Source: a candidate division WWE3 bacterium (GTDB taxonomy: Bacteria; Patescibacteriota; WWE3; JAPLWK01). Taken from it: a stretch of 64,000 nucleotides of DNA. A program made the position numbers and the translations under genes. The notes under the pieces are model-generated. The model made no database searches. It was not told the origin of the DNA and worked only from the letters and a program-made list of their open reading frames with translations. Numbering within the stretch: the first letter of the stretch is position 1; each line of letters begins with the position of its first letter. The DNA lies in NCBI GenBank assembly GCA_026396615.1, contig JAPLWK010000008.1, positions 75,817-139,816 on the forward strand. Reading direction: 5' to 3'. This document shows positions 6,626 to 56,292 of the stretch, piece after piece.

Positions 6626-6629
6626 AAAT

Positions 6630-9683: not shown

Positions 9684-9718
9684 AAAATATTAGAATTACC
9701 AAATTTTCCCAGTTAATA

Positions 9719-11813: not shown

Positions 11814-11905
11814 TCGATATTCGGATACATTCGGAATCAATTCGGATTAATGAACGCTCATTTCATTCGCTATCAATTTCACTAGGCTTTCAATTGTAGG
11901 ATGTC

Positions 11906-13633
11906 TCACTTCACTTCAAACCAAGTGCTGTAAATCCAATCTTTCTCCGGGCTACGAACGTTAAAGGCGTAGCGAAAGCGGATGCCAGTGATCTCACCAC
12001 TATCGATTGACCGGTTGGACCCTTCGGCTTTAACCCATTTGACTCGGGAACTGCTGCCTCCCATCGTCTCCACAGACACTGATTTAACGGCTTCGATTGG
12101 CGTCTTCCCCTCACTCTTCAGCATCGAGCGGACATCTTCCATTGACGTTTTGCTGCTGACCTTATCCAAATCCGACGGACTTAAAAGAGCGGTATTTAAA
12201 ACGTCACCCATATCAATTTGTCCAATCTGGGTCCCCTCAGAACTATCCTTTTTTGGCGGAAAACTTTGGGTTTTCCAGGAATTACTCATGAGGGCACTCC
12301 AATTATTGTAGGGCGACATGGTGTCGTTAAAGTCTGTTGACCGAAGATAGGGATAAGCATCGTTAATAGAGCCTGAATCTTTATACTGCCGCGTATCGCT
12401 ATTAAAAGCAAACGACGGTGTGTCGCCAATAGAATCGGTGTGCGGCCCGGAAGTCGAGAAGTAAAAAGCCCGAATTGGTTCGCCTGAATAAACCATAATT
12501 TTACCCCGAGTTTTATCGGCGGCGTCTTTTTTGGCCGTCCCGCCAATGTAAACTTGACAAGCTTGAGTGGTACAAATGGAACTGTTATTTATGGCATAAG
12601 TGCGAGCGGCAATGATTTGGACCCGATCCATGACGGCGGCAGCATCACTATTAATTGTCCGCCACACCGGATCGGTTTCGCCAATTCCGGCTAAATACTC
12701 GTCCTCAAAGTTCATGCTTCCATAACCCTCGACGTTAATCGAGTCTTTAGAGACGGTCTTAAAGTCGATATCGTGATAATAAAATTTAAGAATCCTTTCT
12801 TCGTCCCAACCTTGGGCGGCCAACATAAAAGCGCCCCATTGGCTCATGCCCACTCCATGCTCCGTCCCGTAACCACCAATGCGCCACGAGGGAGCACCGG
12901 AGGCATTTGGAGTATTTGGGCGGCCGGACCCAGATTCTTTAATATTCTGAACGGCCGACTGCTGCCAACTCATTTGACTGCTAATCTCGGCACTTAAGTC
13001 CGACAGTTTCTGACCAAGAATGGCTTCCTGAGCGGCATATTGTGACAAACGAGCCGAGGCTTCATTCGCCTGATTTTTAAGTTTGCTTTGCAAATTAGCT
13101 AAGGCTTGTTGTTGAGCCAGCAATTGATTTTTAATGGACAGGGCTTCCGCTTTGTTGGCCTCAAAATTAGTGATCTCGTCGTTAAGATTGGTAACAGTGG
13201 CGCGAACGTTGTTTAAAGTGACTTTAAAATAGATTAGACGCTCCGGCCATTCCTGCCAGGAATTAGAAGAAAATAAGAGGACCAAAGGAATGACTTCGCC
13301 CCGTTTGTAATAATCCAAAACCGCCGCGTCTCGCAAAGTTTCCTGTATTGCAATTTTGCCTTTGCGATCAGCCAAACTGGCTTCAATTTGAGTTAAAGTT
13401 GACAGCGTGGCCGTAATTTTAGCTTGCACTGCCGCAATTTGAGAGTCGGTTAAGCCCAGTTTGGTAGACAAATCTTTTAGTTCCACCGCCAAGTTGTCTT
13501 TATCGGATTTGAGTTTAGACAGTTGAGTGGCGGTACTTTGATAATCATCCAAAATTGAAGCCGAGGCAACATTTCCGTTGACAGAAAGCGCCAGAGACAC
13601 TAGGATGATGGGAATGAAGAGAAACCACCGCAT
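11906..13633 (-). CDS. SpoIID/LytB-domain protein with signal peptide and long coiled-coil region
   Basis: GYGTEHGVGMSQWGAFMLAAQGWDEERILKFYY is the SpoIID/LytB signature. The N-terminus has EnvC-like coiled coils. The likely true start is MRWFLFIPIILVSLALS (about 13633); the longer ORF extension to 13804 was rejected. Confidence 0.55.
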   Translation of the reverse strand: MRWFLFIPIILVSLALSVNGNVASASILDDYQSTATQLSKLKSDKDNLAVELKDLSTKLGLTDSQIAAVQAKITATLSTLTQIEASLADRKGKIAIQETLRDAAVLDYYKRGEVIPLVLLFSSNSWQEWPERLIYFKVTLNNVRATVTNLNDEITNFEANKAEALSIKNQLLAQQQALANLQSKLKNQANEASARLSQYAAQEAILGQKLSDLSAEISSQMSWQQSAVQNIKESGSGRPNTPNASGAPSWRIGGYGTEHGVGMSQWGAFMLAAQGWDEERILKFYYHDIDFKTVSKDSINVEGYGSMNFEDEYLAGIGETDPVWRTINSDAAAVMDRVQIIAARTYAINNSSICTTQACQVYIGGTAKKDAADKTRGKIMVYSGEPIRAFYFSTSGPHTDSIGDTPSFAFNSDTRQYKDSGSINDAYPYLRSTDFNDTMSPYNNWSALMSNSWKTQSFPPKKDSSEGTQIGQIDMGDVLNTALLSPSDLDKVSSKTSMEDVRSMLKSEGKTPIEAVKSVSVETMGGSSSRVKWVKAEGSNRSIDSGEITGIRFRYAFNVRSPEKDWIYSTWFEVK

Positions 13634-13967
13634 TGGTTTGATTATACCAACTATTTTGGCTTCCCAATTTTTACTGGCTCCCAAAGTTTTGGCCGCGGAT
13701 ATTGCCACTAACGACATCGGTAGTTTTGTGGGCGGTATCGCAGTCGCGGCAGTGGGTATTGGCGGTGGTGTCGCTCTACTTTTAATAATTATTGGTGGCC
13801 TCATGTTTTCTTTAAGTCGTGGCGATCAGGATAAAGTTCAAAAGGCTAAAGATATGATCACCAGCGCTATTGCAGGGCTGCTCTTAATAATCTTCGCGAC
13901 TGTAATTCTTCGAGTCATCGGCGTTGATATCTTTGGTTTACCGGGAATGCCAGTCTTTAATTTCTAG
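13614..13967 (+). CDS. TrbC/VirB2-like pilin-family small membrane protein (paralog 1)
   Basis: Signal peptide MKRNHRIGLIIPTILASQFLLAPKVLAAD, then two hydrophobic helices separated by SRGDQDKVQKAKD. No class III prepilin motif, so this is not a type IV pilus pilin. Confidence 0.5.
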   Translation: MKRNHRIGLIIPTILASQFLLAPKVLAADIATNDIGSFVGGIAVAAVGIGGGVALLLIIIGGLMFSLSRGDQDKVQKAKDMITSAIAGLLLIIFATVILRVIGVDIFGLPGMPVFNF

Positions 13968-13969
13968 TT

Positions 13970-14920
13970 ATGAAATTTTTAAAAGTCTTTTTTTTGTGTT
14001 CGATTATCTCTGCAGCTCTAGTATTTTCAAGTCGACCTGTTTTGGCAGCTGCCGGAGACTGCGGAGCGGGCTCCTGTCCGGCTAATTATACCTGCCAAGC
14101 GACATCCAATCCGATATTTTGTTGCCCAGTTGCTACTCCGACTCTTACCGCTTGTGGCACCAGCTGCTGCGAAGTCGCTAATTGCTATCATCCGGCAATA
14201 GGTTTACCAACCTGCGTTAATACCAACACCAGTAACTTAAGCACCTGTGGAAGTAATCTCTGTGTCACACAAATTTGTTGTGATACAGGCACATTAGATA
14301 ACTGTGTGCCATTACCAGCTGCCGGTTGTAGTCAGCGTCAACGGGTAAACGATGGCTGCGATAGCGACGGCGTTACCTGTCACCTAAAGCCTACCGACGC
14401 TTCGGTCCCCGCGCGGTTCATCACCGCGGCCGGTTCTGAGTGTGGTAATCACTTATGTGACCCCGGTGAGGCGTGTGAGTTTTCGATTGTCGCCGGAGGC
14501 GTACCTTTTACCTGCGATGGCAATGGCGGCACATCACCACTACCTGCTGGACAAACTTGCAACGCCACCTGTACACAAATTATTTCCAACGGCCAAGGTG
14601 GAGCGATTAGCGGCAATCCCTCAACGTATCATCTTGACACCACTGCCATCGGGGTCACCCCTAAATTCACAACGCTTGGTGGCATTACTTCTTTTGTCGT
14701 TAAGACAATGGTCGGGTTGGCTGGCGTGGCTTTTATGATCATGTTTTTGATCGGCGCCTTTAAGTTTGTGACTTCCCAAGGCGATAAAGCGGCTGTAGAG
14801 AGTGCCAAAGGCACGATTACCAGTGCTTTTATTGGCGTGGCCTTAACGGCGGCCTTATTTGCTATAATGACGCTGCTACAGAACGTTTTTGGCGTTTCGT
14901 TACTAAACATCACGACCTAA
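13970..14920 (+). CDS. fusion protein: signal peptide, a Cys-rich extracellular domain of about 200 aa (about 40 Cys), and a C-terminal TrbC/VirB2-like pilin domain (paralog 2)
   Basis: The C-terminal 75 aa (VGLAGVAFMIMFLIGAFKFVTSQGDKAAVESAKGTITSAFIGVALTAALFAIMTLLQNVFG) are homologous to the neighbouring pilin paralogs. Confidence 0.5.
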   Translation: MKFLKVFFLCSIISAALVFSSRPVLAAAGDCGAGSCPANYTCQATSNPIFCCPVATPTLTACGTSCCEVANCYHPAIGLPTCVNTNTSNLSTCGSNLCVTQICCDTGTLDNCVPLPAAGCSQRQRVNDGCDSDGVTCHLKPTDASVPARFITAAGSECGNHLCDPGEACEFSIVAGGVPFTCDGNGGTSPLPAGQTCNATCTQIISNGQGGAISGNPSTYHLDTTAIGVTPKFTTLGGITSFVVKTMVGLAGVAFMIMFLIGAFKFVTSQGDKAAVESAKGTITSAFIGVALTAALFAIMTLLQNVFGVSLLNITT

Positions 14921-14923
14921 GTT

Positions 14924-15238
14924 ATGAACTTAATTACTAAAGCCTACGCTGTTGTGATTGATCCTGGAATGATTGGGGTTAAAAATATTACCCCGGAATC
15001 GGGAATTATGATGGTCGTTAAAGCTCTAATTGGCGCTTGCGGCTTTGGCGCTTTTATTTTTTTAATAATCGGTGGCGTCAAATTTGTGGTCTCAGCGGGA
15101 GACAAAGGGGCCGTGGAAAGTGCTAAAAAGACAATTACCTTCGCCGTCATCGGCCTGGTCCTGGCCGCGGCCGCTTTTGCAATTGCCTCCTTGTTACAAA
15201 ACGTATTAGGGATTAATATTCTAAATGTAACTATCTAA
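14924..15238 (+). CDS. TrbC/VirB2-like pilin-family protein (paralog 3)
   Basis: ALIGACGFGAFIFLIIGGVKFVVSAGDKGAVESAKKTITFAVIGLVLAAAAFAIASLLQNVLGI. Confidence 0.5.
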   Translation: MNLITKAYAVVIDPGMIGVKNITPESGIMMVVKALIGACGFGAFIFLIIGGVKFVVSAGDKGAVESAKKTITFAVIGLVLAAAAFAIASLLQNVLGINILNVTI

Positions 15239-15262
15239 AAACAGGAGGTGACTTAATTTATT

Positions 15263-15620
15263 ATGTTTTTAATCAAAGATCTATTAGTAAAAGCTGCGTA
15301 TGCGGCACCAATTGATATTTTTAAAACTGCAGACGCTACCAGCGTTGACTTAAAAATTCAGAATGTTCAGACAGTAGTTTCTACCGGTATTAAAGCCCTA
15401 ATCGGAGCCGCCGGTTTACTGTTCTTTGTGATGTTAGTCTGGGGTGGTATTCAATTCGTCACTTCTGGCGGCGATAAAGCTCAAGCTACCGCCGCTAAAG
15501 ACCGAATTACTCACGCTTTATTGGCATCGTAATTGTGGCAGCCGCTTTCGCTATTGCCACGTTGCTCCAAAACGTCTTAGGAATTGGAATTACCGATTAC
15601 AACATTAGTAATGCTTACTA
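15263..15620 (+). pseudogene. TrbC/VirB2-like pilin paralog 4, disrupted by a 1-nt deletion frameshift near 15518. It is a near-identical tandem duplicate of paralog 5
   Basis: nt 15401-15588 are identical to 15775-15963 except that a single C is missing. The ORF stops at 15532, but the out-of-frame downstream sequence encodes the conserved C-terminal helix (IVIVAAAFAIATLLQNVLGIG). A good RBS (AGGAGGTGA) is present. Confidence 0.5.
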
Positions 15621-15642
15621 AGGGAGGTGAATTGTTATAATT

Positions 15643-15996
15643 ATGAATTTTTTAAATATAATCTCTGGTAAAGCTTTCGCTGAAAGTGTATTTGTAACCG
15701 GAAATAAAGCCACCGCTGTAGGCTTAAATATCTCCGACACCGGACTTCTGGTGTCCACAGCTATCAAAGCCTTAATCGGAGCCGCCGGTTTACTGTTCTT
15801 TGTGATGTTAGTCTGGGGTGGTATTCAATTCGTCACTTCTGGCGGCGATAAAGCTCAAGCTACCGCCGCTAAAGACCGAATTACTCACGCTCTTATTGGC
15901 ATCGTAATTGTGGCAGCCGCTTTCGCTATTGCCACGTTGCTCCAAAACGTCTTAGGAATTGGAGTTACCAACTTCACGATCCAACAGGCTTACTAA
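15643..15996 (+). CDS. TrbC/VirB2-like pilin-family protein (paralog 5)
   Basis: ALIGAAGLLFFVMLVWGGIQFVTSGGDKAQATAAKDRITHALIGIVIVAAAFAIATLLQNVLGIG. RBS GGGAGGTGA. Confidence 0.55.
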   Translation: MNFLNIISGKAFAESVFVTGNKATAVGLNISDTGLLVSTAIKALIGAAGLLFFVMLVWGGIQFVTSGGDKAQATAAKDRITHALIGIVIVAAAFAIATLLQNVLGIGVTNFTIQQAY

Positions 15997-16059
15997 TCAA
16001 ACGTTTCGCCCGGTAGCTAGGCAATCTAGCTACCGAAGCATCGTTAGATTTTTTAGTAT

Positions 16060-16368
16060 ATGGCTATATGCACAATTGGTGATCCACCCACTATAGATCA
16101 ACTGGGCCCCTGCTTTGTAAGCATTATTAAGCTAGTGGTAGGTTTTGCTGGGGTGGCTACCGTAATTGTGTTTTTAATTGGCACCGTTCAGTACATCACT
16201 TCCCGCGGTGACAAAGAAGGCGTTACCGCGGCTAAGGGTACCCTCACCTACGCCATTATTGGCCTGGTGGTGGTCGCCGTCGCCTTTGGGCTAGTCAGTC
16301 TTATTGACCGAACTATTCTTGGTGGAACCAACACTCTTCTCAACTTCGACGTTCCCAGTATTCACTAA
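16060..16368 (+). CDS. TrbC/VirB2-like pilin-family protein (paralog 6, most divergent)
   Basis: LVVGFAGVATVIVFLIGTVQYITSRGDKEGVTAAKGTLTYAIIGLVVVAVAFGLVSLI has the same architecture as the other paralogs. Confidence 0.45.
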   Translation: MAICTIGDPPTIDQLGPCFVSIIKLVVGFAGVATVIVFLIGTVQYITSRGDKEGVTAAKGTLTYAIIGLVVVAVAFGLVSLIDRTILGGTNTLLNFDVPSIH

Positions 16369-16377
16369 ACTCCATTT

Positions 16378-16409
16378 GTCATTCCGGGCTTGACCCGGAA
16401 TCCAGTAAC
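16378..16409 (+). repeat. hairpin repeat type A (GTCATTCCGGGCTTGACCCGGAATCCAGTAAC), solo copy
   Basis: Exact consensus copy 10 nt after the stop codon of pilin paralog 6. Confidence 0.8.
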
Positions 16410-16444
16410 TTCAGATTGATAATTAATTAGTTTATACTTACCTC

Positions 16445-19400
16445 ATGCCCAAGCGAGTGTCGATAATATTGGAATTTTCATTATTATTAATTGCAATTAT
16501 TATTCTAAAACCAACCCCCGCCTTTGCCGCTGCTCCGGATCCCGTGGCCTGCTTCACCAACGAAGATCCCACCTTTGGGGGCGTTACTCGAGGCAATTCT
16601 ACCAGCTTTAATGTTCTATTGAACATGAAAATCACCGATTTCTACTGCGCCGCTCCTAACTGGCCCGTCGCTTCCGTTCTTGAAGGCAACGATGCCACGC
16701 ATATGGATGTTGGCACTAACTGCCCGGCGGCCAATGATCCGGCAGTCCTGGCTAAAATCGTGGCCCAACTAAAAAGCCAAATCGAGAATGTTTCCTTAAT
16801 CCCAGGTGCCATGACCAATCCCAGCGTTCTTAGTCAAGCCAATTTTCAGGGCGATACTACTTGGACGTTACTGCGACCGCCTAGTGATATTACTCCCAAC
16901 AAAGTCAACAATATTACCGGCCAAACCGCTCTTAATACAGTGGGCACTTCCAAGATTTACTACGCCGCCTGCACCAACGTGCCCGAGGTGGGACCGGTCT
17001 GGTTTTCAATGGCTAAAGACGTCCCAGCTCCTCAGGGCAAAGTCCTACCCTCGTATCGTAAAGAAGCCGCCGCCTCTTTTTACCTGCAAAATTATTTGAC
17101 CCAAGTGCCGGGTGACGATCCAATCATTAAAGAGCTTAAAAAGGAAACGCCGGTTTTTAATGACAATACTACCTCCGACCTTCTTCCCTTTCCAAAACTT
17201 AGCTTTCAGTTAGCCTCTCGAAAAATTGCCGAAAGCGATTATTTAATTTACTGGAAACTATGCGCCAAAAAGGGACCTGTGGACACAGTCAAAAAAAATA
17301 TTTCATGCCAACTTAGTAATTTTATTACTGACATCGAGCACACCGATGTTAGCGGTGCGAAAAGTCTGGTCGCCGAAATTCCTAACGATGCTTGGGGCAA
17401 GAACACCGGCGATGACTTCACTTGCTTTACCACCGGCGATTTCGACACCCATCCTCTTAAAGTGACAGCAACCCCAGGCAGCAGCTACCCGCTTTCCGTC
17501 AAACTCATTGGCACGCCGATTGACGAAAACGTTTGTCAGAATAATGCGCAGCTCGATAGTGCCGTTTATCTCGACCCCAATAATCAATTGGCATACAGCG
17601 GTTATTCGACTACCCCTCACGTGGCCTTCTGTAATGGCGTCAACTCAACAGTCGTCAACAATACCAGTCAGAGCGTGTGTATTGGTGGAGACTGTCATGT
17701 GACGGCGATTGCCAAATTTTTTAACGACGCTTCCGCTAAAATCAGTGCTGTTTTTGACAATTGGATTCATCAACTCACTCCTACTACTACTTGGGGTGAC
17801 GTAAATCCTGATTCCGCAGCGTCCTGTCAAAAGACAGCGGAAGATATTTGTAATGGCCCCAAAGGTCAAGGCGCTTCTGATAATCTAATCATCACCCAGT
17901 CCACGGACTTCAATTGGATTCAGGTGGATCCGGCCGCCAAACCGGTCGACAAAATAATTAAGGTTTTCGTTACCAACAATAGTAAAAGGGATGCCACCCT
18001 TAATGTTTACAGCCAAGTTCTGGTCACTAGCGAAAGATCGCTCCCGGTAACAATTACCACCTCCAATGCCGCGGGAAGCCAAAATAGTCCTCAAATTGCC
18101 GTTTACGGAAACACTATTTACTGGAATGGCCTGATCGTCCCCGCAAATGGCGTCACTACTGAACTTGATTATCACGTTAGCGTGACTGCAATAAACTCCG
18201 GAACTATTTCAGCTACTTCTGGTGTCAGTGGTGATATTTATAAAACTGTCACTTTTTATAGTGACACTAACTTTGCTTGTCAGAAAGTCGCTGGAGTTGG
18301 TACAAATTCCTGTGATCCTAAAAATAATGACGCCGACTGTAGCGCTAAGCACCTAGCATGTAATAACGGCACCGGTATCTGTGAGTTAGTAAACGGCGCC
18401 GGTACTAATACTTGTTTAACTAATTCCCAATGTAAAGACGACAAGCGACATCTTGACTGTGTAGGTAACGCCTGTGTGGCTGTGCAGGGGACTGGGGTAG
18501 ATAATTGTAATCGTTTGGCGAGTTGTAATACTACTACCCATACCGGTTGTAGCCTCGATTCGGCAAACCCAACTTGCGCGAGTTTTACTTATGTTGGTCC
18601 TAATAAACCAACCAATAATTGCAGTATCAGTGGTAATAGCGGATGCGACGGTGCTAACTCCTCAAGTTTTCATATGGAGTGCAGCAGCGTCGGTAAACCC
18701 GAGCCTAGAGATGTTTCGCAGCCCGAATCGACTTCCACGCAGTCCGGCTTAATTACCGTTTCCAGTACCAACGCTTCTGACGATGAAAACTTATGTGTGA
18801 AGATTGCGAAAATCGTCTGCTATATAACCACTATGCCGTCCCTAATGAGCGGTTACTCCTACACCCAACCTCTAGAGGTTAAAGTTTATCCGTACCCGGA
18901 GGCTTCATATACTCAAGGCATAGACACGCAAGCCGCCAGCCCTAAGGATGGTCTTTTTAATCTCTTCTACGCGCCTGGACAAGATAACAAAATCGCCGCT
19001 TTAAGCGAAAAGGATGTTGACGCCAAAGCCGGATTAAATACTAATATAAACGGTAACAGCCCCGCCACCGACGCTTCGATTAAAGGCAGCCAACAGACCC
19101 TGTCGCCTTTGAAGTATCTGCAGAAAAATGCCCTCTGCCCTCCCGGTCAAGAGGCAACCTGCCCCGATATGCCCCAAACTGTCAACGAGGCGATGCCAAC
19201 TGACGGGAGCATTCCACCTCCCGATACTCCACCGCTACCAGGACCAGTTGTTCCCGGCGCCAACGTTGGCTTCAGCGTTCCAGCTTGCACCGGAGGCAAT
19301 GACGTGGCCATTTCCCAGCGTTCGACCTACACCCAAAATATATTAGCCCAAGCCGCAGCAGCCGAGGGCGTTCCAGTGAGTTTATTAACAGCTATTTTGA

Positions 19401-19852: not shown

Positions 19853-19885
19853 GCAGTTAGGGCGCTACTATGCTAAAATAACCTC

Positions 19886-21397
19886 GTGAAACCAGCCACA
19901 ACTACCGCCAAAATAATAGCCCTTATCACCCTTACCGCCTTTATCACCCTTATTAACACCACCCCTACAAATGCGGAGACGATAAGCTGCGGTGAAGTGG
20001 TGCCTACCACTGGTGCTGGGGCCGCTAAAAGCCCTTCCCAATATTTTGAAGTTTCAGTACCGGCCAGCTTTGGTATGTCTGAAGAAGATATTAGAAAGTC
20101 AGCCGAAGAAAAGTTAACCCGAGAAATTACCGTGGCTCAAGATAAATACTCAACTCCCAAAGCCGCCAGTCTCTCCCAAAAATATGAAGACATGCGCTTT
20201 GTGTTGCAGCCGCCAATGAATCCCACCGTCAACAGCTCTGCGCAAGGCATGAGTAAGGCCACGGAATATATAACCGCCTGCGAAGAAGGCACTACTAATT
20301 GGTTTTATATTGAGAGCCAGGGCATTGAAGGGCAAATTAGTAAGGATTTCACCCTGGCCGATAAGGCCACACAGCCCCTCAATGATTATTTAATTCATCT
20401 ACCGCTGTCGCCAACCAGAGTTGAAGAAGTAAATTCCAGCCAAGGGGCCGCCGCTCACTATTTTTTGGACCAACCCGACAGCGGAATTCCCAAGATGTCA
20501 CTGATTCTGCGACCAAGGATCGAAGACACTGATAGTTATAACGTTTATTGGGATCTGTGCGTGACACCTCCCAACCCCTACGACGCGAGTAATAGGGTCA
20601 GTTGCCCTTTTGAAGAGTTTGTGACCGAATTATCGACGAGTACCGGTGACACGCAGTCGATCGTTCCTGGAGCCTATACCAGCTTTGACGGCTCGATCGT
20701 TAACTGGGGAAATAGCCAAAGTGCCATGTGTGTAAGTTCCGAGACGCTAAAACTATCACCCTTTAAAGTTGCTAAAGGCCAAGGAGTGAGCGTGACGGCT
20801 AAGATTTTCGGTCGGCCGAGTGAAGCCAAAAGAGATACTTGCGTTGATAACGCCGCCGAAGTAACAGCCAACGCCTTTGCCTCGATTGATGGTGTGACCA
20901 AAAGTGAACATAGTCAAGCAGCCACCAAAGTGATGTGCCCCGGCGTCTATACCCCGGCCGGCCGGATTTTTAAACCGGAAGACCACTGCATTGCTGGTGT
21001 TTGTAAAATCGACCCGGCTATTCACACTGTTCAATCAATTACCGGAAACCTATGGGCCTGGCTTCAAAGTGCCCTTAGTAACTGCAACTCCGTCGCCGAG
21101 TGTATTGCCAAAATCCTCGTCCAAGACACTCGTAAATACTATGTTTATTTTTATAACGCTGGGGGCAATTACGGAGCCATCAATAGCAGTGCTACCAATA
21201 CCGGCGTTCAGTCCGGTTTTAATCAGTTATTTCGCCCACCTCAAGATGAATTTTCCAGTATCTTTGCCGAGGAACCAGCCGGCGATAACAACCACTTAAG
21301 CCACAACACGCCAATTAAGTCGGACTACACCAAAGTGCAGACGTATTTAACCCCACCGGGACAAAGTTTCCTCACAGATAAATCAGAAATGCGTTAA
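19886..21397 (+). CDS. secreted protein, paralog of the N-terminal domain of the 16445 protein
   Basis: Signal peptide. The shared motifs YNVYWDLCVTPPNP...VSCPFEEFVTE match LIYWKLCAKKGP...ISCQLSNFITD, and SLILRPR matches TLLRPPS. Confidence 0.45.
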   Translation: MKPATTTAKIIALITLTAFITLINTTPTNAETISCGEVVPTTGAGAAKSPSQYFEVSVPASFGMSEEDIRKSAEEKLTREITVAQDKYSTPKAASLSQKYEDMRFVLQPPMNPTVNSSAQGMSKATEYITACEEGTTNWFYIESQGIEGQISKDFTLADKATQPLNDYLIHLPLSPTRVEEVNSSQGAAAHYFLDQPDSGIPKMSLILRPRIEDTDSYNVYWDLCVTPPNPYDASNRVSCPFEEFVTELSTSTGDTQSIVPGAYTSFDGSIVNWGNSQSAMCVSSETLKLSPFKVAKGQGVSVTAKIFGRPSEAKRDTCVDNAAEVTANAFASIDGVTKSEHSQAATKVMCPGVYTPAGRIFKPEDHCIAGVCKIDPAIHTVQSITGNLWAWLQSALSNCNSVAECIAKILVQDTRKYYVYFYNAGGNYGAINSSATNTGVQSGFNQLFRPPQDEFSSIFAEEPAGDNNHLSHNTPIKSDYTKVQTYLTPPGQSFLTDKSEMR

Positions 21398-21403
21398 TCG
21401 TTG

Positions 21404-21425
21404 AGGACGAGGCATGCCTCGTCCC
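21404..21425. terminator. GC hairpin with GCATGC apex (GGACGAGG-CATG-CCTCGTCC) between convergent genes
   Basis: 8-bp perfect stem. The 26-nt string TTGAGGACGAGGCATGCCTCGTCC is repeated identically at 49700. Confidence 0.4.
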
Positions 21426-21497
21426 TACACTTATCGTCAGGAGGCCTCCTTTAGATTTGTAGGGACGACCCATGGGTCGTCCTCGATGATTCCGCTT

Positions 21498-22508
21498 TTA
21501 TTGCAACGCCTTGACGAAATATACAGCCGTCGTCGACCGCCCATCCGCCAACGTCACCGTCCCACTAAACGCATATACCGGTTCCAAATACGTACCTCCC
21601 TTACGAGTTTCCAGATACTCAAGTTTAACGTCAGTGAAACTGGCGGCATTAATTCCCGCCACCATCGCCAAACTATCTCCTACAATTCCCAAAGTCGCGA
21701 GAGTCGCCCGTCCAGCCTTTAAGTCTTCCAAAGCCGTTTCGATCGTCTTTAAAGGATAAACCCCAAAACTACCGTCACCATTTTGCAGCAAATGATAGTA
21801 AAACTTACCGGAAATTAGACCGTCATTTTGCCAACCAAAAGTTATCAGGGTTTCGTCACCAGGCAAACTGGTTACCGGCACATTATTAACGATTCGCAGC
21901 ACATTAAAATCGCCGGTTGGCGTATTTAAAGGCTGGTCGAAACTTAAATCAGGATAATTTAAATCCAGTGATTTTAATAGATTCTGCAGCACTTCGGTCT
22001 TTGAAGAAGCCTCCCCGCCAAATGACGCGATATCGCGAGGCTGCGCCAAGTTAAAAATAAAGCCATCGCTTACGGAATCGTAAAATAGATAATTGCCTTT
22101 TTCCTGCCACGTCTGACCCCCAAAAGTCGGTTTTGACTTAACCGTAAAACCTAATTTGACCGCCAATTTGTCTAGGGTGGACGGGGTTAAAACAGCTGTT
22201 TGCCCAAAGCGATAGACTCGAGCGGTCGCTGGAAACTTTAAAGTCGCTGTATCAATAAAGCTCTGCATGGCTGAAGGAGTGGCTCCCGGAATCGGGCTCG
22301 GTGGTAAAGAAATGACCGGCAGCGAGCCGAAAGTTTGGCTAACAGGCTCGCTAGGCACGGTAGTTGAAGTTGCCGGGGTCGTTGGTGCCGAGCTGCGCGA
22401 GGCCAACAAAAAGATGATTAAACCAATCCCGACAGCGCTAATAATGGCAATGGCCAGGATTTTATTATTCGCATAAAACTCTTTAAAAGCGGCAATATAT
22501 TTATCCAT
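21498..22508 (-). CDS. bitopic membrane protein (N-terminal TM anchor, Pro/Thr-rich linker, extracytoplasmic domain)
   Basis: TM ILAIAIISAVGIGLIIFLLA. Its start codon abuts the stop of the upstream 1178-aa gene. A VirB8/PrgL-like role is pure speculation. Confidence 0.35.
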   Translation of the reverse strand: MDKYIAAFKEFYANNKILAIAIISAVGIGLIIFLLASRSSAPTTPATSTTVPSEPVSQTFGSLPVISLPPSPIPGATPSAMQSFIDTATLKFPATARVYRFGQTAVLTPSTLDKLAVKLGFTVKSKPTFGGQTWQEKGNYLFYDSVSDGFIFNLAQPRDIASFGGEASSKTEVLQNLLKSLDLNYPDLSFDQPLNTPTGDFNVLRIVNNVPVTSLPGDETLITFGWQNDGLISGKFYYHLLQNGDGSFGVYPLKTIETALEDLKAGRATLATLGIVGDSLAMVAGINAASFTDVKLEYLETRKGGTYLEPVYAFSGTVTLADGRSTTAVYFVKALQ

Positions 22509-25500
22509 TAAGAACCTCCACTACAAACCGCAGCCGTCGAATTAACATAAGTTTCCGGGCAGACGCGGCTACCACTCGGATCAAAGATTTCATAATGTAA
22601 ATGGTACCCCGTGGAATAACCGGTTGATCCGGTTTTACCAACAATGCCGCCAATTCCCACATGCCAACAAGAACCCGTTGGCTTTCCGGGCATATAGCCG
22701 CTACCGGAATCACCGGCAATCGGTTGAAGGTGGGCGTAACGAGTGCGGTAACCGCCATCACCGGTAATATCAATATACACACCGTAAGGTAAATTGTTAT
22801 TGTTTTCGGTGGAAACGGCGTAACGACAAGCATTTCCCGCGATTAAAGCGTGGATCTCTGTGCCATCGCCGTAAGGTAAGTCGACGGCCAGCAACCCCTC
22901 ACTACCCTGATGCCAGGAACAGCCAAAAGTGACAGAGGCTGCCCCATCAGGCAAGCCACATGGCGCTATTTCCGCCGGCGTCCCCACTTTTATAACGGCG
23001 GTGGCGCTGTTACTCACACTCGCCCCCGAAATTGTGCCGGTGGCCGTCACCGTAGCAACAATAAAACGACTAGTGGTCGTGTACACTGTCATATTACAAG
23101 TATAGGTGATGCTGGCTCCTGCGGCCAGAGTCCCGGACCCAAAAGAAATATTCCCGCCGGATTCGGTGCCACTGGGCGTACAGGAACCGTAGCTAACGCC
23201 ATGGCCTGGTTGATAATTGTAATTAACGTTTAAACCGATAAGTTCGCTGCTACTGATATTAGTCACCTTTATGGTGTAAACAACAGCGGGACTGGAGTTT
23301 AAAGTTATAATTGGGCGGTCCACCGACATCTCTACTTTTAGATTAGGTGACGCCGCCCCCGCATCCGCCCCGCCGTGAGCGTTAAAATTCGCCCCGCCAA
23401 TTACCCCCATCGCGCCAAAAAGTAGTAGTGGGAATAGACATCCCACCGCGCAACAACCACAACTAACCACTTTTATATTTTCCCCGGAACTCATGAAGCC
23501 GTAATCGGTAAATACGGTCATTTTAAAAGGTCGCCAATAAAAAGCTGCCGCTTTTGACACCGGCCCCTTAATCGCACTCCAAATCTTCCCTAAAAGTTTT
23601 TGGCCAATCCACGCCAAAACAGCGGTGATAATTGGACCTAAAACAGGAAGGGCATTAGATAACGCTTCGATTCCGCCTAATATAGCCCCCAAAACTGCTT
23701 TTAAAGCCACTTTAAGTGCACCTTTAAGACCTAGCTTAAGTGCCATTTTGGCCCCAGAAGAAATAAGTCTTGTCTTTAACAGTAAAGCCCAAGCCTTAGG
23801 ATCCGCCGCAGCTGATTTTACCCAGCCACCTCTAAAAAAATTGATGGGACCCTTCAGCCACGGAACTCTTTTAAAGAGCGCCTCGAAGGCCACGCTTTGA
23901 AGATGATCTAAATTTTTACCGACTGAAGATACGGCCCCAATATATTTCTTAGCCAATCCATGAGAATCGATATCTTCCCAAAATTTAGCGAATTTGGTTA
24001 AATCAGAAACGCTGCCAGTAGCATCAATAATACCGTGGCTAGTTAGAAATGCCTTAATTTGCGGGTTTTTAGCTAAAAAGGTAGCTAATTCCCCCGCTGT
24101 AAGACCGGCCACATCACGAGTCATCCCAGGAGCTTGACTAACAGACCGACCAATAACAGCCTGAAGAACATCAATACTCCCTGGAGCCCCTGAAAGAATT
24201 CCATTGATTTCTGCGGCACTTACTAATGGAAGATTAGTAGAAGGATCAATTATAGAGGCTGCTTTCTGTAAGAAGTTAACTACTTTCCAATCGGTGTCAG
24301 CAAAACCTAAAGCGCTACTTACTTTACCGGCAGTTAGCTTAATTGTTCTCTTAGCGACATCTTTATATTCTTTTTTGACGGGATCCCAGGTAGAGGCTCC
24401 GAAAGCGTCGAATTTATCAATTACATGTATGTATCCAAAATTCTCGGTGTCAATTAAACCAAATGATAACCTATTTACAACATTCGCTAATTTGGGATGA
24501 TCCGCAACTGCTTTAGTTAATTTGTAGAATGGCTGCCAACCGGTTATATCTGTGTCATCAAATCCATTTAGCAACCCGAATGTTTTTACCTTCTTCATTG
24601 CAAAACTAACGTAGTCTGCTGGGCTTAAGTACTTGGCGTATTGGGAAATGCCAGGAATATATTTGGCGACCCTGGTACCCCAAACAAAAAACTTAAAAAA
24701 AGATTTTGAATCAACTGCTTCTAAAAAGTCTGTCGCGGTACTTTGAGTTTCACGATAATTAACTAACTTCACCCAAGTCACCATCCGAGTTGCTTCAGTT
24801 GCAGACAAGCCTAGATCAGTCAAATATTGCGTACCACCCTTCAACACATCCTTCCACGTTTGATCAACATTTTTATACATCTCCTGATACTCTTTCTCTT
24901 TTTCCCAGAATTTATCTCTCGCCGCTTTAAGGTCAGGGTTGGTCATACTGGCCGCGGCGGCCGCCCCAATAACCAGTGGTTGGGGTACAAACGGAACCGC
25001 TAGGACACCTAACCCAGCAGTCGCGGGACTCATGCTACTTAGCCCTTTATTAAACCTATCTTGTATTTTCCCTTTGGTACTTATGTCAAATCTTAAGTTG
25101 TCCCACTTTCTTCCTTGAATATCCCCACTAAAAGGATGAAAAACACCACCGGAATCGGTATAACCGGTTTGTACTACACCGCTTGTGTCTGTATAAGAAT
25201 ACGTAACCGTCTGAGTTGGTGGAGCCACAGCAAAAGGATCTACTTTATCCGCTACCTCTATTGCTGACCCTTGAAGATTCTGCCAACGCAATGCAGCCGC
25301 TTGAACAGCCGGATTAGGAGAGGCTAACATGCTGGTTAAATTAGCCGCATTTATTTGGGCGTTAATAGAATCCAATAAATCAACTTGAAGATCTTGGTAA
25401 TTCTTTAAACGGCTAGGGCGACTACCGCGAGTTATTCCCCATTTCTGAATATCGTTAGCCACTTTCTTGTACATGTCGGTTCCGTTAACTATTACAGAAG

Positions 25501-26044
25501 CTGAAGAGCTGATAGCCCCAGTAACAGGATCTTCTACAACTAAACCTTTACCACCGATACCGTGATTCTCACCTTTAACTAAAGGCTGCCAAAAATACTC
25601 CAGCTCTGCAACTGCTTCTAGATCTTCCGTGTTAACTACTGCTTTCCACCAATTATCTGCAGTTTTTTCTAAAACTTTCTCAGGGTCATCTAACCAATCT
25701 TTTAAATTTAGGGAGAGTGGGGTGCCCGCAGCTCCTGGGAGGTCCCTGAGTTCTTGTTTAGTAGTTTCTACATCAATATCCTTCTCACGATCACCTTCAG
25801 GGTTATAGCGAGCGCTCAAGAAGCGGTTTATATCTGCACCTAAATTTTTATAAACTTTAGCCGGATAAGTACCAATATTTAAATCGTCTATAAAAGCGTC
25901 AAAATCGCCCTCGTCTAAAAGTCCACCCCCGTACTCATAAGGCTCCCATTCTTTTACGTAGCCTCGAGCAATCGGTTTTCTACCTTTTGGGGGAACTTTT
26001 TTAAAACTCCGGCCTGGGCCTCGCTTCTTTTTGGGTGGTGGCAT
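22508..26044 (-). CDS. giant protein (1178 aa). It has a highly basic N-terminus, a long alpha-helical region with a Gly/Ala/Lys-rich amphipathic segment and a TM, a DUF11/CARDB-like beta domain, and a C-terminal peptidase M23 (LytM) domain
   Basis: The C-terminal TGYSTGYHLHYEI and HALIAGNACRYA...YGVYIDI match the M23 HxxxD / HLH metal-binding motifs. The N-terminus is MPPPKKKRGPGRSFKKVPPKGRKP. A tape-measure-like AL-K-rich stretch lies at aa about 720-800. Confidence 0.55.
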   Translation of the reverse strand: MPPPKKKRGPGRSFKKVPPKGRKPIARGYVKEWEPYEYGGGLLDEGDFDAFIDDLNIGTYPAKVYKNLGADINRFLSARYNPEGDREKDIDVETTKQELRDLPGAAGTPLSLNLKDWLDDPEKVLEKTADNWWKAVVNTEDLEAVAELEYFWQPLVKGENHGIGGKGLVVEDPVTGAISSSASVIVNGTDMYKKVANDIQKWGITRGSRPSRLKNYQDLQVDLLDSINAQINAANLTSMLASPNPAVQAAALRWQNLQGSAIEVADKVDPFAVAPPTQTVTYSYTDTSGVVQTGYTDSGGVFHPFSGDIQGRKWDNLRFDISTKGKIQDRFNKGLSSMSPATAGLGVLAVPFVPQPLVIGAAAAASMTNPDLKAARDKFWEKEKEYQEMYKNVDQTWKDVLKGGTQYLTDLGLSATEATRMVTWVKLVNYRETQSTATDFLEAVDSKSFFKFFVWGTRVAKYIPGISQYAKYLSPADYVSFAMKKVKTFGLLNGFDDTDITGWQPFYKLTKAVADHPKLANVVNRLSFGLIDTENFGYIHVIDKFDAFGASTWDPVKKEYKDVAKRTIKLTAGKVSSALGFADTDWKVVNFLQKAASIIDPSTNLPLVSAAEINGILSGAPGSIDVLQAVIGRSVSQAPGMTRDVAGLTAGELATFLAKNPQIKAFLTSHGIIDATGSVSDLTKFAKFWEDIDSHGLAKKYIGAVSSVGKNLDHLQSVAFEALFKRVPWLKGPINFFRGGWVKSAAADPKAWALLLKTRLISSGAKMALKLGLKGALKVALKAVLGAILGGIEALSNALPVLGPIITAVLAWIGQKLLGKIWSAIKGPVSKAAAFYWRPFKMTVFTDYGFMSSGENIKVVSCGCCAVGCLFPLLLFGAMGVIGGANFNAHGGADAGAASPNLKVEMSVDRPIITLNSSPAVVYTIKVTNISSSELIGLNVNYNYQPGHGVSYGSCTPSGTESGGNISFGSGTLAAGASITYTCNMTVYTTTSRFIVATVTATGTISGASVSNSATAVIKVGTPAEIAPCGLPDGAASVTFGCSWHQGSEGLLAVDLPYGDGTEIHALIAGNACRYAVSTENNNNLPYGVYIDITGDGGYRTRYAHLQPIAGDSGSGYMPGKPTGSCWHVGIGGIVGKTGSTGYSTGYHLHYEIFDPSGSRVCPETYVNSTAAVCSGGS

Positions 26045-26090
26045 ATGTGAGTAGTTTAGTGTAAATAGAGCAAATTGTCACCGATCATCC

Positions 26091-26122
26091 GTCATTCTGA
26101 ACTTGATTCAGAATCCAGTAAC
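26091..26122 (+). repeat. hairpin repeat, compensatory variant (GTCATTCTGAACTTGATTCAGAATCCAGTAAC)
   Basis: Both stem arms changed (CCGGG to CTGAA, CCCGG to TTCAG) while keeping perfect 8-bp pairing and the CTTGA loop. Confidence 0.75.
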
Positions 26123-26233
26123 AGTAAATGAATTTGAAATTCTAAATTTGAAATTTGAAATTGTAAATTATCTACAGAGGAACTTTGAGGCTTTGTAAAT
26201 CTTTATCTAAGGCGTTTAGATCGGCGTCTGGCG

Positions 26234-26974
26234 TCAATCTTTGGCTAGCGATAAACACCACACTTGCCCGCAACCGGCTTCTTTTAAAGCTTTCGCGGCG
26301 GAAAGGAAAGTGGCCCCGGTCGTACAGACATCGTCAATCAGAAGAATGTCCTTGTCGACTAGTTTTGACGTGACCTGCGACCGGACTTTAAAAGCCCCGC
26401 TAACATTTTGGTGACGTTCTTCCCTCTTCAATCTGGTTTGGGTTTTAGTATTCTTGATCCGCAATAGGGATTTGACGTCTAAAGTTAAACCAAAGTATGT
26501 AACGAGAGAGCGGGCAATTAGTTCCGAAACATTAAAACCACGGATCATCCGCCGTCGCCAATGTAAAGGAATCGGGATAACGATGGTTTCAGGACCGAAT
26601 GACACTCCTTTATCGACTAATTCCGACCAGGCGATTGGCAGTAATTCCTGAAGAGAATTAAAGGCGTATGGCGAATATTTGGCCTTTTGGAGGATTTTCG
26701 AAAACGGCCGTTTGTAAGTATAAATCGACAGGAATTTTTCCGGTGTAAATTGCGTCGCGCATTGACGATGCGTGTGACCTTTTACTGAGGCCTTGTCGCA
26801 TTTTAAACATACGTTATCACTGCAGAATTTAAGATCACGCTGGCAATCGCCGCAAACAAACTGACCCCTCTTCCCGCAACCGCCACAACGAATTGGAAAT
26901 AATAAATCTCCAATAACTTTCAAGAAGTTATCCACAGTGGTTGTTGTGCTTGTCATTACTGCTTTTAGCGACAT
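26234..26974 (-). CDS. comFC: ComF family protein (ComFC; phosphoribosyltransferase domain with N-terminal double zinc ribbon)
   Basis: N-terminal CGGCGK...CGDCQ...CLKCDK and C-terminal LLIDDVCTTGATFLSAAKALKEAG (the PRTase motif). Confidence 0.75.
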   Translation of the reverse strand: MSLKAVMTSTTTTVDNFLKVIGDLLFPIRCGGCGKRGQFVCGDCQRDLKFCSDNVCLKCDKASVKGHTHRQCATQFTPEKFLSIYTYKRPFSKILQKAKYSPYAFNSLQELLPIAWSELVDKGVSFGPETIVIPIPLHWRRRMIRGFNVSELIARSLVTYFGLTLDVKSLLRIKNTKTQTRLKREERHQNVSGAFKVRSQVTSKLVDKDILLIDDVCTTGATFLSAAKALKEAGCGQVWCLSLAKD

Positions 26975-27825: not shown

Positions 27826-27901
27826 GCGCTCGTAGCTTAATGGATAGAGCATTAGCTTGCGGAGCTAACGGTTGCGCGTTCGAATCGCGCCGAGCGCACC
27901 A
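27826..27901 (+). tRNA. tRNA-Arg(GCG), CCA encoded
   Basis: Cloverleaf with acceptor GCGCTCG/CGAGCGC, D-stem GCTT/GAGC, anticodon stem TTAGC/GCTAA, loop TTGCGGA (anticodon GCG, G37), and T-loop TTCGAAT. Confidence 0.75.
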
Positions 27902-27907
27902 CGTTTT

Positions 27908-27936
27908 TTGACTACCATCTAAAAAAGGCGTATAAT
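27908..27936 (+). promoter_or_regulatory. consensus sigma70 promoter for ssrA: TTGACT-17 nt-TATAAT
   Basis: Perfect -10, near-perfect -35, and 17-bp spacer, about 24 nt upstream of the mature tmRNA 5' end. Confidence 0.6.
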
Positions 27937-27960
27937 GGTTCCCAGGCACTTTAAAAACAT

Positions 27961-56289: not shown

Positions 56290-56292
56290 AAA

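Follow-up and report, generated by a model that had tools for sequence, protein, structure and literature searches.

Which machine do the pilin genes and the genes for giant proteins serve that lie together in a 13-kb block of a candidate division WWE3 MAG? A sequence-only reading of the window, that is, the whole analysed stretch of 64,000 nucleotides, had assigned them to a T4SS-related, chromosomal and non-conjugative apparatus of a small-genome, host-dependent bacterium. All of the genes that it listed are present where it had placed them, and its view of the organism (CPR/Patescibacteria) is supported. The block is, in our judgement, probably the extracellular and cell-wall half of a chromosomal, non-conjugative Patescibacteria T4SS, here of a WWE3 bacterium. 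Belonging to a T4SS already known from ultra-small host-dependent Patescibacteria, it is real, but not a new type of machine. The functional roles discussed below are predicted from the genes of an uncultivated lineage.

The pilin array

The pilin genes form one co-oriented string with the genes for a 1135-aa giant and its 503-aa paralogue, while a 1178-aa M23 protein and a 336-aa bitopic protein are encoded by a pair convergent to that string. All six pilin ORFs (13578-16368) match the Pfam family PF18895 (T4SS_pilin; E 1.5e-5 to 1.9e-10), and five of them pass its gathering score, the exception being a 316-aa fusion (25.4 vs 26.6). Two hydrophobic helices flanking a conserved S-x-GD-K loop are found in all five intact pilins. 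Pilin 1 (13578..13967, + strand; PF18895 E 7.3e-10, TrbC E 7e-4) probably begins with an ATG at 13605-13614 and a Sec-type leader that ends in VLA, and is 66% identical to protein p115 of the related locus L001. Pilin 3 (14924..15238, +; E 1.4e-7) aligns with the other pilins; pilin 5 (15643..15996, +; E 1.9e-10) and pilin 6 (16060..16368, +; E 1.8e-9, 62% identical to L001 p101) complete the VirB2-like set.

The remaining two genes are unusual. Pilin 2 (13970..14920, +; E 1.5e-5) is the fusion: a signal peptide is followed by a ~200-aa Cys-rich domain with 25 Cys, for which a search detected no relatives, and by a C-terminal VirB2-like module (residues ~235-316) that is 58% identical to that of a fusion orthologue in L001 (245 aa). 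Of the ‘pilin-tip fusions’ proposed earlier, one fusion therefore stands, with support for neither the plural nor the ‘tip’. Pilin 4 (15263..15532, +) arose by recent duplication of pilin 5 and is frameshifted: aligned with 15620-16000, it is 100% identical over ~190 nt and has a 1-bp deletion, due to which the second helix is lost, and the remnant, with one hydrophobic helix, runs on to ~15620. The six TrbC/VirB2-like pilins originally counted are thus five intact pilins and one broken copy.

The giant proteins and their companions

Paralogue and domain comparisons divide the secreted Cys-rich giant (1135 aa; 16445..19852, +) into a Sec-type leader, a region common to the 503-aa paralogue (residues ~120-430), a DUF11-like beta region (the 1175-aa L001 orthologue bears DUF11), ~30-aa Cys repeats (residues ~600-760), a linker and a lytic-transglycosylase tail. 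The tail (residues 945-1135; 19277..19849, +) has no Pfam match at threshold and was identified by fold and motifs as a Cys-rich SLT/goose-lysozyme-fold domain, with Glu988 (codon 19406-19408) as the putative catalytic residue. The secreted 503-aa protein (19886..21397, +) is, as had been suggested, a paralogue of the N-terminal region of the giant (BLASTP 3e-7; iterated search 1e-83); it has neither Cys repeats nor a hydrolase tail, and its orthologues are placed after the giant in L001, L004 and L007.

The second giant, a 1178-aa membrane protein (22508..26044, -), comprises a basic N-terminus, a ~850-aa unrecognised region, a DUF11 domain (23003-23341; E 1.5e-5) and an M23 peptidase domain (22583-22885; E 7e-9, 36.2 bits vs a threshold of 28.7); its homologues are P0003-5. 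Hydrophobic segments are located at residues 341-365, ~790-815 and 857-885. The net charge of +13 of residues 366-780 favours a cytoplasmic location of this part, and the topology is ambiguous. The M23 domain has canonical YAHL and HLHYE motifs, and its first Zn-binding motif is atypical, with no His at the HxxxD spacing. Both hydrolase tails had been claimed from the letters alone: Pfam supports M23 above threshold, with SLT remaining below it, and because of this sub-threshold score and the atypical Zn motif either enzyme is possibly inactive.

The gene for the 336-aa protein (21498..22508, -) begins with a start codon that overlaps the stop codon of the M23 giant gene. This protein is bitopic, as predicted, with a single N-terminal TM segment, and its structure model (pLDDT 65, moderate confidence) likens the ectodomain to YycH/YycI (WalK regulators) and YpeB (the partner of the lytic transglycosylase SleB) of Bacillus. 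There is no sequence similarity to these proteins (7-12% identity) and no WalK-type kinase near the gene; unlike YycH, YycI and YpeB, the protein is translationally coupled to an M23 protein within a T4SS locus. It was also considered as a VirB8-like subunit and rejected, not being NTF2-like; a search for such a subunit at this T4SS found none.

PrgK (pCF10), TraG (pIP501) and CwlT (ICEBs1) are cell-wall hydrolases of Gram-positive conjugation systems, which possess a relaxase and a coupling protein, and in which we know of no pilins. Here, as there, the T4SS locus encodes a membrane-anchored protein with peptidoglycan-cutting domains, and an enzyme domain for glycan strands (SLT or muramidase) is paired with one for peptides (LytM/M23, CHAP or NlpC/P60). 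Unlike in PrgK, TraG and CwlT, each activity has its own ~1150-aa protein, the SLT carrier is Sec-secreted and Cys-rich, and the M23 carrier has its ~850 unrecognised residues ahead of the anchor. The label ‘Gram-positive-type parts’ fits VirB3, VirB4 and the hydrolases, but not the pilins. In the Agrobacterium VirB system, a diderm system with a VirB7/9/10 core, the SLT-fold VirB1 is encoded beside the pilin gene, and VirB2-type pilins consist of two hydrophobic helices. The present locus shares the SLT-fold gene directly beside pilin genes and the two-helix pilins; while VirB1 is ~245 aa long, the SLT tail here, below the Pfam SLT threshold, comes after ~940 aa of other domains.

The rest of the locus and its counterparts

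The membrane platform lies 18-32 kb from the block. A VirB6/TrbL-like polytopic protein (43746..45128, -; ~6 TM segments, 43% identical to a 422-aa protein of L001) is encoded next to dnaN in the window, while its L001 counterpart adjoins the M23 giant; the L053 member of this family matches TrbL (E 2.1e-5). The ATPase operon (54406..58403, -), characterised by Pfam scan and L001 orthologues, encodes a VirB4-like protein (54406-56289, -; 83% identical to the L001 gene), a TrsD/TraC-like protein (56293-56988, -; 77%) and a PrgI/VirB3-like protein fused to a CarboxypepD_reg domain (56985-58403, -; 53%). The L001 counterparts of this operon directly abut the block, which bears out the link already suspected between the two. 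The T4SS assignment of the block is supported as well. Since block and VirB4 side are contiguous in L001, we regard the three pieces around the origin as a single T4SS locus, broken up here by rearrangement.

Every block gene except ComFC has a 1:1 orthologue in L001, in unchanged order and at a T4SS locus beside dnaN/dnaA. The order in L001 and L003 is SpoIID, five pilins, the 1175-aa giant, proteins of 459 and 331 aa, the 1184-aa M23 giant, VirB6-like, PrgI, TrsD, VirB4, a 334-aa protein and dnaN-jag-yidC-rnpA-dnaA; L004 and L007 show parts of it. In a wider survey of 44 VirB4-centred Patescibacteria loci, the layout is readable where the sequence extends far enough from virB4, and there it consists of a pilin array, an opposite-strand giant with a small bitopic protein, VirB6-like, PrgI, TrsD and VirB4. 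The N-region family of the M23 giant occupies the same position in L008, L014, L019, L020, L033, L045 and L046, i.e. at least seven other WWE3-type loci, and M23 tails are confirmed in L008, L021 and L033. Compared to VirB4 and TrsD, the Cys-rich giant (29-39% identity to L001), the 503-aa protein (36%) and the M23 giant (38%) are strongly divergent, which would fit surface-exposed, host-facing parts.

The closest published counterpart is the T4SS of Southlakia epibionticum ML1 (SEML1_0004-0019, beside dnaA/dnaN; Wang et al. 2023, Cell, PMC10633639, Tables S1/S2), which is essential for epibiotic growth, has no relaxase and no recognisable locus-encoded coupling protein, and includes six pilins, three ~1000-1100-aa proteins and a lysozyme/CHAP protein, with ComFC nearby. 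Both systems are chromosomal and dnaA/dnaN-adjacent and share VirB4, PrgI, small TrsD-like and VirB6-like proteins, a pilin array (in Southlakia, six divergent PF18895 pilins), lysozyme-type hydrolases, a cluster without relaxase or recognisable coupling protein, and a ComF-family gene nearby. By description the giants resemble each other as well: the 1113-aa SEML1_0007 has a peptidoglycan peptidase fold at its C-terminus. The systems differ in class (WWE3 vs Saccharimonadia), in the splitting of the locus, in the peptidase tail (M23 vs a Hedgehog/DD-peptidase, M15-like fold), in the glycan cutter (the cryptic Cys-rich SLT ending the secreted 1135-aa protein beside the pilins vs a 643-aa lysozyme x2 + CHAP protein downstream of VirB4) and in the NTF2-like (VirB8-like) protein of Southlakia, not found here.

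A survey of Patescibacteria (Quinonero-Coronel et al. 2025, Microb Genom, PMC12102498) found VirB2 genes in arrays of 2-11 in 383 assemblies; relaxases were absent, VirB1 homologues with M23 domains were present, and the loci lay close to the origin. The window agrees in its MPF_FATA-like VirB4 with PrgI and TrsD, its VirB2 array, the lack of a relaxase, the M23 domain on a VirB1-like protein, and proximity to the origin and KsgA (63010-63783). Within-array identity reaches at most 54% in the survey, in contrast to the ~190 identical nucleotides of two neighbouring pilin genes here; its text does not name WWE3 and describes neither giants nor a YycH/YycI-like partner nor a domain-bearing pilin. 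The original claim that the architecture is undescribed fails, because relaxase-less, origin-proximal loci with pilin arrays, ~1100-aa proteins and hydrolases are already published (PMC10633639, PMC12102498), as are large Cys-rich CPR proteins (PMC4736985). The cryptic Cys-rich SLT subfamily, the partner of the M23 giant and the domain-bearing pilin may each be a new lineage-specific detail.

Competing readings and predicted function

Alternatively, the block could be a DNA-uptake (competence) apparatus in the style of ComB of Helicobacter, passing imported DNA to the adjacent ComFC, which we consider unlikely. The ComFC-like protein (26234..26974, -) is correctly named, having DZR_2 and Pribosyltran (PRTase) domains, and its gene abuts the M23 giant; the Southlakia ComF-family gene SEML1_0021 lies two genes past the pilin array (PMC10633639), comF is common near T4SS genes in the class ABY1 (PMC12102498), and nucleotide acquisition via a T4SS has been proposed (PMC11665869). 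However, ComFC is not a conserved block member: it is not beside the block in the closest relatives, L001 and L004, which have a VirB6-like gene on that side, and between it and the giant lie 189 nt with a promoter-like site. Southlakia ComFC is non-essential, whereas the T4SS genes are essential, and deletion of comEC ends competence with viability unaffected. Both the inclusion of ComFC in the block and the uptake reading are therefore weak.

Slightly less probable still is a reading of the giants and the 503-aa paralogue as common CPR adhesins or autolysins of the cell surface, mere neighbours of the pilins. Large Cys-rich exported proteins, noted in 2016, are widespread across CPR genomes (PMC4736985); the Cys repeat (residues 609-703) recurs in >60 unrelated proteins, the same SLT tail is also found on a 1182-aa protein encoded beside a MurJ-like flippase gene outside any T4SS context, and proteins related to the N-terminal part of the Cys-rich giant occur in one narrow clade only. 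Against this, four independent relatives keep these genes in gene-for-gene synteny with pilins and VirB4 operon at only 29-43% protein identity, in at least 7 further species the M23 giant stays next to VirB6-like, the distant lineage L053 has seven pilins, a 1001-aa giant whose tail is the same Cys-SLT domain and a TrbL-like protein, in that order, and the peptidase-tailed Southlakia counterpart is essential and located inside the T4SS cluster (PMC10633639).

An intact or degenerate integrative conjugative element moving DNA between cells is highly improbable: VirB4, PrgI and TrsD have homologues among the MPF_FATA conjugation proteins and the pilins show a weak match, of 15-31 bits vs a cutoff of 40, to the Mycoplasma ICE pilin-like family NF045849, but the Pfam scan of window ORFs (nearly all of those >=90 aa) revealed no relaxase, coupling protein or integrase, and no repeat-bounded island was found among them, the locus is surrounded by dnaA, dnaN, yidC, dnaK, rpoD and dnaG, its origin-proximal position is the same in relatives, a tblastn search of 72,556 plasmids and 50,697 phages gave no relative for either giant, and relaxases occur in only 103 Patescibacteria genomes of the survey (PMC12102498). 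The earlier view of a chromosomal, non-conjugative system thus holds; a coupling protein could be encoded beyond the window, which is part of a 213-kb contig.

While the function of Patescibacteria T4SSs has been called ‘completely unknown’ (PMC11665869), the preferred T4SS reading suggests a mechanism. VirB4, VirB3 and VirB6 would form a membrane channel, with pilins pulled from the membrane into a pilus or conduit. To open peptidoglycan for passage, the M23 endopeptidase would cleave the cross-links and the SLT domain the glycan strands; the wall crossed would be the producer's own, as with VirB1, PrgK and CwlT, and possibly the host's too. The YycH/YycI-like partner may hold or regulate the M23 giant via its TM helix, and three components could provide surface or host contact: the Cys-rich giant, which evolves fast, its paralogue, and the pilin with the Cys-rich domain. 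The predicted output is contact-dependent host-cell traffic (protein export or building-block import) rather than plasmid transfer. Divergent from pilin 1 lies a gene for a SpoIID-like protein with a coiled coil (11906..13804, -; PF08486 E 3e-6), whose 65% identical orthologue holds the same position in L001 and L003; this conserved neighbour is a possible third wall-remodelling enzyme.

One locus in three pieces around the replication origin

Every gene that the sequence-only reading placed in the pilin/hydrolase block (window 13578-26974) lies where it was put, and its calls of ComFC, PrgI and VirB4 were confirmed. The gene order of two loci from other metagenome contigs, L001 and L003, shows how the block relates to the VirB4 operon 28 kb away. 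In both, a SpoIID-like gene is followed by five pilin genes (including a 245-aa fusion), genes for a 1175-aa giant, a 459-aa and a 331-aa protein and a 1184-aa M23 giant, then by genes for a 422-aa polytopic protein, PrgI, a TraC-like protein, VirB4 and a 334-aa protein, and finally by dnaN-jag-yidC-rnpA-dnaA. As judged by reciprocal BLAST, the window genes from SpoIID through the M23 giant each pair with one L001 gene, with the order kept; the 422-aa protein has its counterpart in the window ORF at 43746-45128, beside dnaN, and the L001 VirB4 operon in 54406-58403. Given this gene-for-gene pairing, the island and the distant operon are one locus, split in this genome into three segments that lie to either side of dnaA (48286-49641). 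While 27 kb separate the pilin/hydrolase block from virB4 in the window, the two are contiguous in L001 and L003 and lie within 10 kb of each other in many species. Parts of the L001 arrangement recur in two further loci, L004 and L007.

The synteny check in related CPR genomes that had been proposed came out in favour of the block, whose genes are kept one-to-one and in order in L001 and L003, and the link to a type IV secretion system (T4SS) holds. The exception is ComFC, which had been given too much weight: it is outside the conserved set, and a VirB6-like gene occupies that side in L001 and L004. Identity between the window and L001 is 29-39% for the extracellular parts and 83% for the VirB4 ATPase, and the far faster divergence of the former fits host-facing roles.

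The split of the T4SS locus around dnaA looks like the pattern of origin-centred inversions. Relative to L001, the VirB6-like gene is still beside dnaN, and the VirB4 operon lies across dnaA, where it adjoins tpiA and a gene of the LCP family. The window lacks a counterpart of the 334-aa gene that follows VirB4 in L001.

That the locus might belong to an ICE or prophage is rejected on gene content and origin-proximal synteny. A Pfam scan of nearly all window ORFs of at least 90 aa returned no relaxase, coupling protein or integrase, so that the T4SS is not accompanied in the window by these or by a replication module, as it would be in a conjugative element, and tblastn against plasmids and phages found no relatives of either giant. 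The non-conjugative interpretation offered earlier therefore stands, and the bacterium was rightly judged to be host-dependent. The window genes outside the block are housekeeping genes (recF, fpg, dnaG, rpoD, pnp, infB, nusA, dnaN, jag, yidC, dnaA, tpiA, dnaJ, dnaK, grpE, hrcA and ksgA). The GC content of the block (0.46-0.485) is just slightly over that of its flanks, and a promoter/terminator scan gave counts that barely exceed those of shuffles.

Elsewhere in the window, 6000-12000 is low in GC (0.35-0.39 versus ~0.44) and encodes three polytopic membrane proteins that match nothing in Pfam, along with two class-I methyltransferases; it may be an envelope glycan-modification island. Just past ComFC, 27826-28330 holds tRNA-Arg(GCG) and a tmRNA gene with the tag ADKTATVPAYAYANVYA, and tRNA-Ser genes lie at 3907-3998 and 32112-32202.

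Pilin array and VirB4 platform

All six small ORFs of the array match the T4SS_pilin family PF18895 in Pfam (E 1.5e-5 to 1.9e-10), and five pass its curated threshold, with 29.3-41.1 bits versus a cutoff of 26.6. The sixth, the fusion pilin 2 (13970-14920), in which a signal peptide and a ~200-aa domain containing 25 Cys precede a pilin module, scores 25.4 bits, under the cutoff, with neighbours matched at 1e-16 to 1e-20. The six had been called TrbC/VirB2-like: they are pilins by PF18895, but scores against TrbC (PF04956) are sub-threshold throughout, and pilin 4 is without its second helix. In the intact pilins, a hydropathy scan and alignment A8 place two hydrophobic helices on either side of an invariant S-x-GD...A...T loop. 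Predicted Sec-type leaders are clear in pilins 1 and 2, the remaining pilins having only short leaders that end in A-x-A. For no Patescibacteria T4SS did we find, in the literature on these systems, a demonstration of pilus polymerisation.

Pilin 4 (15263-15532) is a recent duplicate of the pilin gene at 15643-15996: ~190 nt are identical (100%), and the 5' halves differ. In pilin 4, the upstream copy, a single-base deletion truncates the ORF, with loss of the second helix, making this gene either a pseudogene or an assembly error. The ~190-nt identity itself could be due to recent duplication, gene conversion or a short-read assembly artefact; identity within published VirB2 arrays reaches 54% at most (PMC12102498). 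At the start of the array, the listed ORFs of the SpoIID-like gene (minus strand) and pilin 1 (plus strand) overlap at their 5' ends (13578-13804), and the two genes, like those of L001, still overlap or abut when read from likely internal starts (~13633 and ~13605-13614), which would leave almost no space for separate promoters.

To place the platform, we scanned species-representative genomes with VirB4, which yielded 44 Patescibacteria loci labelled WWE3, Woesebacteria, Gottesmanbacteria, Dojkabacteria and Paceibacterota, several of the record titles being clearly wrong. The window VirB4 shares 58-73% identity with the VirB4 of these 44 MAGs, against 25% with a Vibrio homologue. VirB4 and PrgI are recognised by profile (P-loop_TraG, E 1e-30; PrgI, E 2.2e-7), and a TraC-like family match is recorded for the L001 orthologue of the TrsD/TraC-like protein. 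Wherever the contig is long enough, the loci hold the VirB4, PrgI and TrsD trio, and in those reaching far enough (many contigs are short) ORF and profile searches show a common layout: the pilin array, a small bitopic protein and an 870-1150-aa protein on the opposite strand, a VirB6-like gene, then PrgI, TrsD and VirB4.

The VirB6-like protein of 460 aa (43746-45128, minus strand) has ~6 TM segments. A Pfam scan of 19 members of its family gave no match to TrbL or any other model; a further member, in L053, reaches 24.8 bits against a TrbL cutoff of 25.9 and matches the family profile at 2e-85. The VirB6 assignment rests on topology, position and this one near-threshold match, PDB sequence and profile searches with the protein having returned noise. 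No VirB8-like bitopic subunit of NTF2 fold was found in the window.

The PrgI/VirB3-like protein (56985-58403) carries a fused C-terminal CarboxypepD_reg beta-sandwich domain, and among its relatives (L008-L052) length ranges from ~260 to ~785 aa. Several VirB4 ORFs are extended, to 862, 918 and 1234 aa in L014, L021 and L047. Operons of VirB4, TrsD and PrgI that are 60-73% identical to the WWE3 operon occur in many species-representative MAG records (L011, L012, L022, L024, L029 and others) under the titles 'uncultured Gammaproteobacteria', 'Clostridia bacterium' or 'Candidatus Saccharibacteria', which look unreliable.

Two giant proteins with hydrolase tails

The 1178-aa giant (22508-26044, minus strand) was correctly read as ending in an M23 peptidase domain: PF01551 is above its gathering score (36.2 versus 28.7 bits, E 7e-9, residues 1054-1154), preceded in Pfam by DUF11, and the HxH motif and the preceding catalytic His are present. 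Its catalytic motifs, YAHL and GYHLHYEI, are canonical: they line up with those of the TagE, Csd3-type and lysostaphin chains and do not vary among four homologues. The HxxxD zinc-binding motif is atypical, in that Asp1055 is invariant without a His at -4; in homologues a His is found at -6, a position taken by Glu in the window protein, and His1045 at -10 is invariant. On these motifs the tail is likely, not certainly, active. The ~850-aa N-region gave noise only in PDB sequence and profile searches, with no recognisable fold or relatives there, and a genome-collection scan with motifs from it found nothing. An iterated search over the VirB4-fetched loci recovered its family, which occupies the same position, between the pilin array and the VirB6-like gene, in seven loci; M23 tails are confirmed in three loci, and one has a weak CHAP match. 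The topology of the giant is ambiguous. Its homologues, which share 34-39% identity, led to contigs of other metagenomes. The neighbouring 336-aa protein (21498-22508, minus strand) has one N-terminal TM segment, and seven other loci contain members of its family, located in those cases downstream of VirB4.

The second giant (1135 aa, 16445-19852, plus strand) has a typical leader and 45 Cys, and the 503-aa protein that follows (19886-21397, plus strand) is a true paralogue of its residues ~120-430. The VirB1-like lytic-transglycosylase tail proposed for it stands on fold and catalytic motifs and falls short on the Pfam score. The tail has the goose-lysozyme/SLT fold, and the putative catalytic Glu988 (E-S motif), the G..Q motif and the Tyr of the RYYG motif are invariant across nine sequences; in the best PDB profile matches these motifs align with phiKZ gp144 and EmtA, with E of only ~0.8. 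Against SLT PF01464 the isolated tail scores 16.5 bits versus a gathering score of 21.3 (E 0.0065), and neither the whole protein nor eight relatives match, bar one relative at 13.9 bits. A word-indexed homologue search with the 1135-aa protein returned only itself, the relatives being obtained by exhaustive phmmer search.

The SLT tail accompanies T4SS genes in the window, L001, L053 and L055, and not in L005 or L006. In L053, a run of seven pilins leads to a 1001-aa protein carrying this tail, and a TrbL-like protein comes next; L055 has a small SLT-tail version in the company of a VirB6-like gene, a pilin fusion and a weak CHAP protein. One 1182-aa protein bearing this tail is outside any T4SS context. 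By iterated search, the N-region of the Cys-rich giant and its paralogue are limited to a close clade, and the SLT tail spreads beyond it. The window also exposes an SLT subfamily that standard profiles overlook, which may partly account for 'VirB1' rarely being found near virB4 in the published survey. The N-terminal ~600 aa of the Cys-rich giant, without fold assignment, are as opaque as the N-region of the M23 giant.

Residues ~609-703 of the Cys-rich giant (18270-18553) carry a ~30-aa repeat (C-x-x-V-x-G-x-G-x-x-x-C...C) also present in over 60 metagenomic proteins that are otherwise unrelated; one of these additionally matches the Dictyostelium CTDC repeat family. A DUF11/CLIPPER beta-sandwich occurs in both giants, ahead of the M23 tail (23003-23341) and midway along the Cys-rich giant's orthologue in L001 (15978-19505 in that locus; residues 559-658).

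Published counterparts and a possible role

The sequence-only reading took this architecture to be undescribed; it has been described, and the window is a new WWE3 example with some lineage-specific components. Southlakia epibionticum has an essential T4SS beside dnaA/dnaN, comprising genes for a PEGA protein, a 643-aa protein (lysozyme x2 plus cysteine-peptidase), a 1113-aa protein, VirB4, a small protein, PrgI and a 998-aa protein (Wang et al. 2023, PMC10633639). It also includes an NTF2-like protein, a 1088-aa VirB6-like protein and six pilins that match PF18895. The 1113-aa protein has a C-terminal Hedgehog/DD-peptidase fold whose structural neighbours are annotated M15B and M23, and beyond the pilins come an Hsp20 gene and one of the ComF family, the latter non-essential (PMC10633639). 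A survey of the phylum (Quinonero-Coronel et al. 2025, PMC12102498) reports a VirB4 clade related to MPF_FATA with TrsD and PrgI near virB4, 441 VirB2 arrays with 2-11 genes each, VirB1 homologues that carry M23 and LysM, an almost complete absence of relaxases, and a T4SS close to dnaA/dnaN/ksgA, with comF nearby in ABY1. Its text does not name WWE3, and our full-text literature search returned no paper on a WWE3 T4SS. Large Cys-rich exported proteins were noted in CPR bacteria in 2016 (PMC4736985). A 2025 review describes Patescibacteria T4SSs as unique among monoderms in being essential and potentially piliated (PMC12857230), and a 2024 perspective calls their role completely unknown (PMC11665869).

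In a working model, a platform of VirB4, VirB3 and the VirB6-like protein would build a pilus or conduit from the pilins. The M23 tail would cut peptide cross-links and the SLT tail glycan strands, letting the structure cross a wall, the producer's or the host's; the bitopic 336-aa protein would control the M23 giant, and contact would fall to the Cys-rich giant, the 503-aa paralogue and the domain-bearing pilin. A more specific version, which we consider rather improbable, gives the hydrolase-tailed proteins more to do than perforate the cell's own wall. In it, the secreted, fast-evolving Cys-rich SLT giant would join the domain-bearing pilin and the tail-less paralogue in a pilus-associated module for host recognition and wall breaching, a functional replacement for VirB5 or adhesins: the T4SS pilus of a monoderm epibiont would cut host peptidoglycan, and the YycH/YycI-like 336-aa protein would prevent the M23 giant from attacking the wall of the producer itself. 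Exchange of hydrolase tails (M23, CHAP, M15, SLT) among lineages would then follow the wall chemistry of the hosts.

The Patescibacteria T4SS is essential for epibiotic growth in the single species tested, and to this the window adds a WWE3 example. The relatives suggest a conserved outer module made of a pilin array, a large secreted protein, a small bitopic partner and a ~1100-aa membrane protein with an exchangeable peptidoglycan-hydrolase tail. These are annotation leads for work on tractable Saccharibacteria and leave the picture of what the system is unchanged. In a Paceibacterota-labelled MAG (L042, 11908-16763), the stretch directly downstream of VirB4 and just ahead of dnaN/dnaA encodes a 336-aa family member and a 1267-aa protein whose M23 match is weak, a Southlakia-like position unlike that in WWE3.
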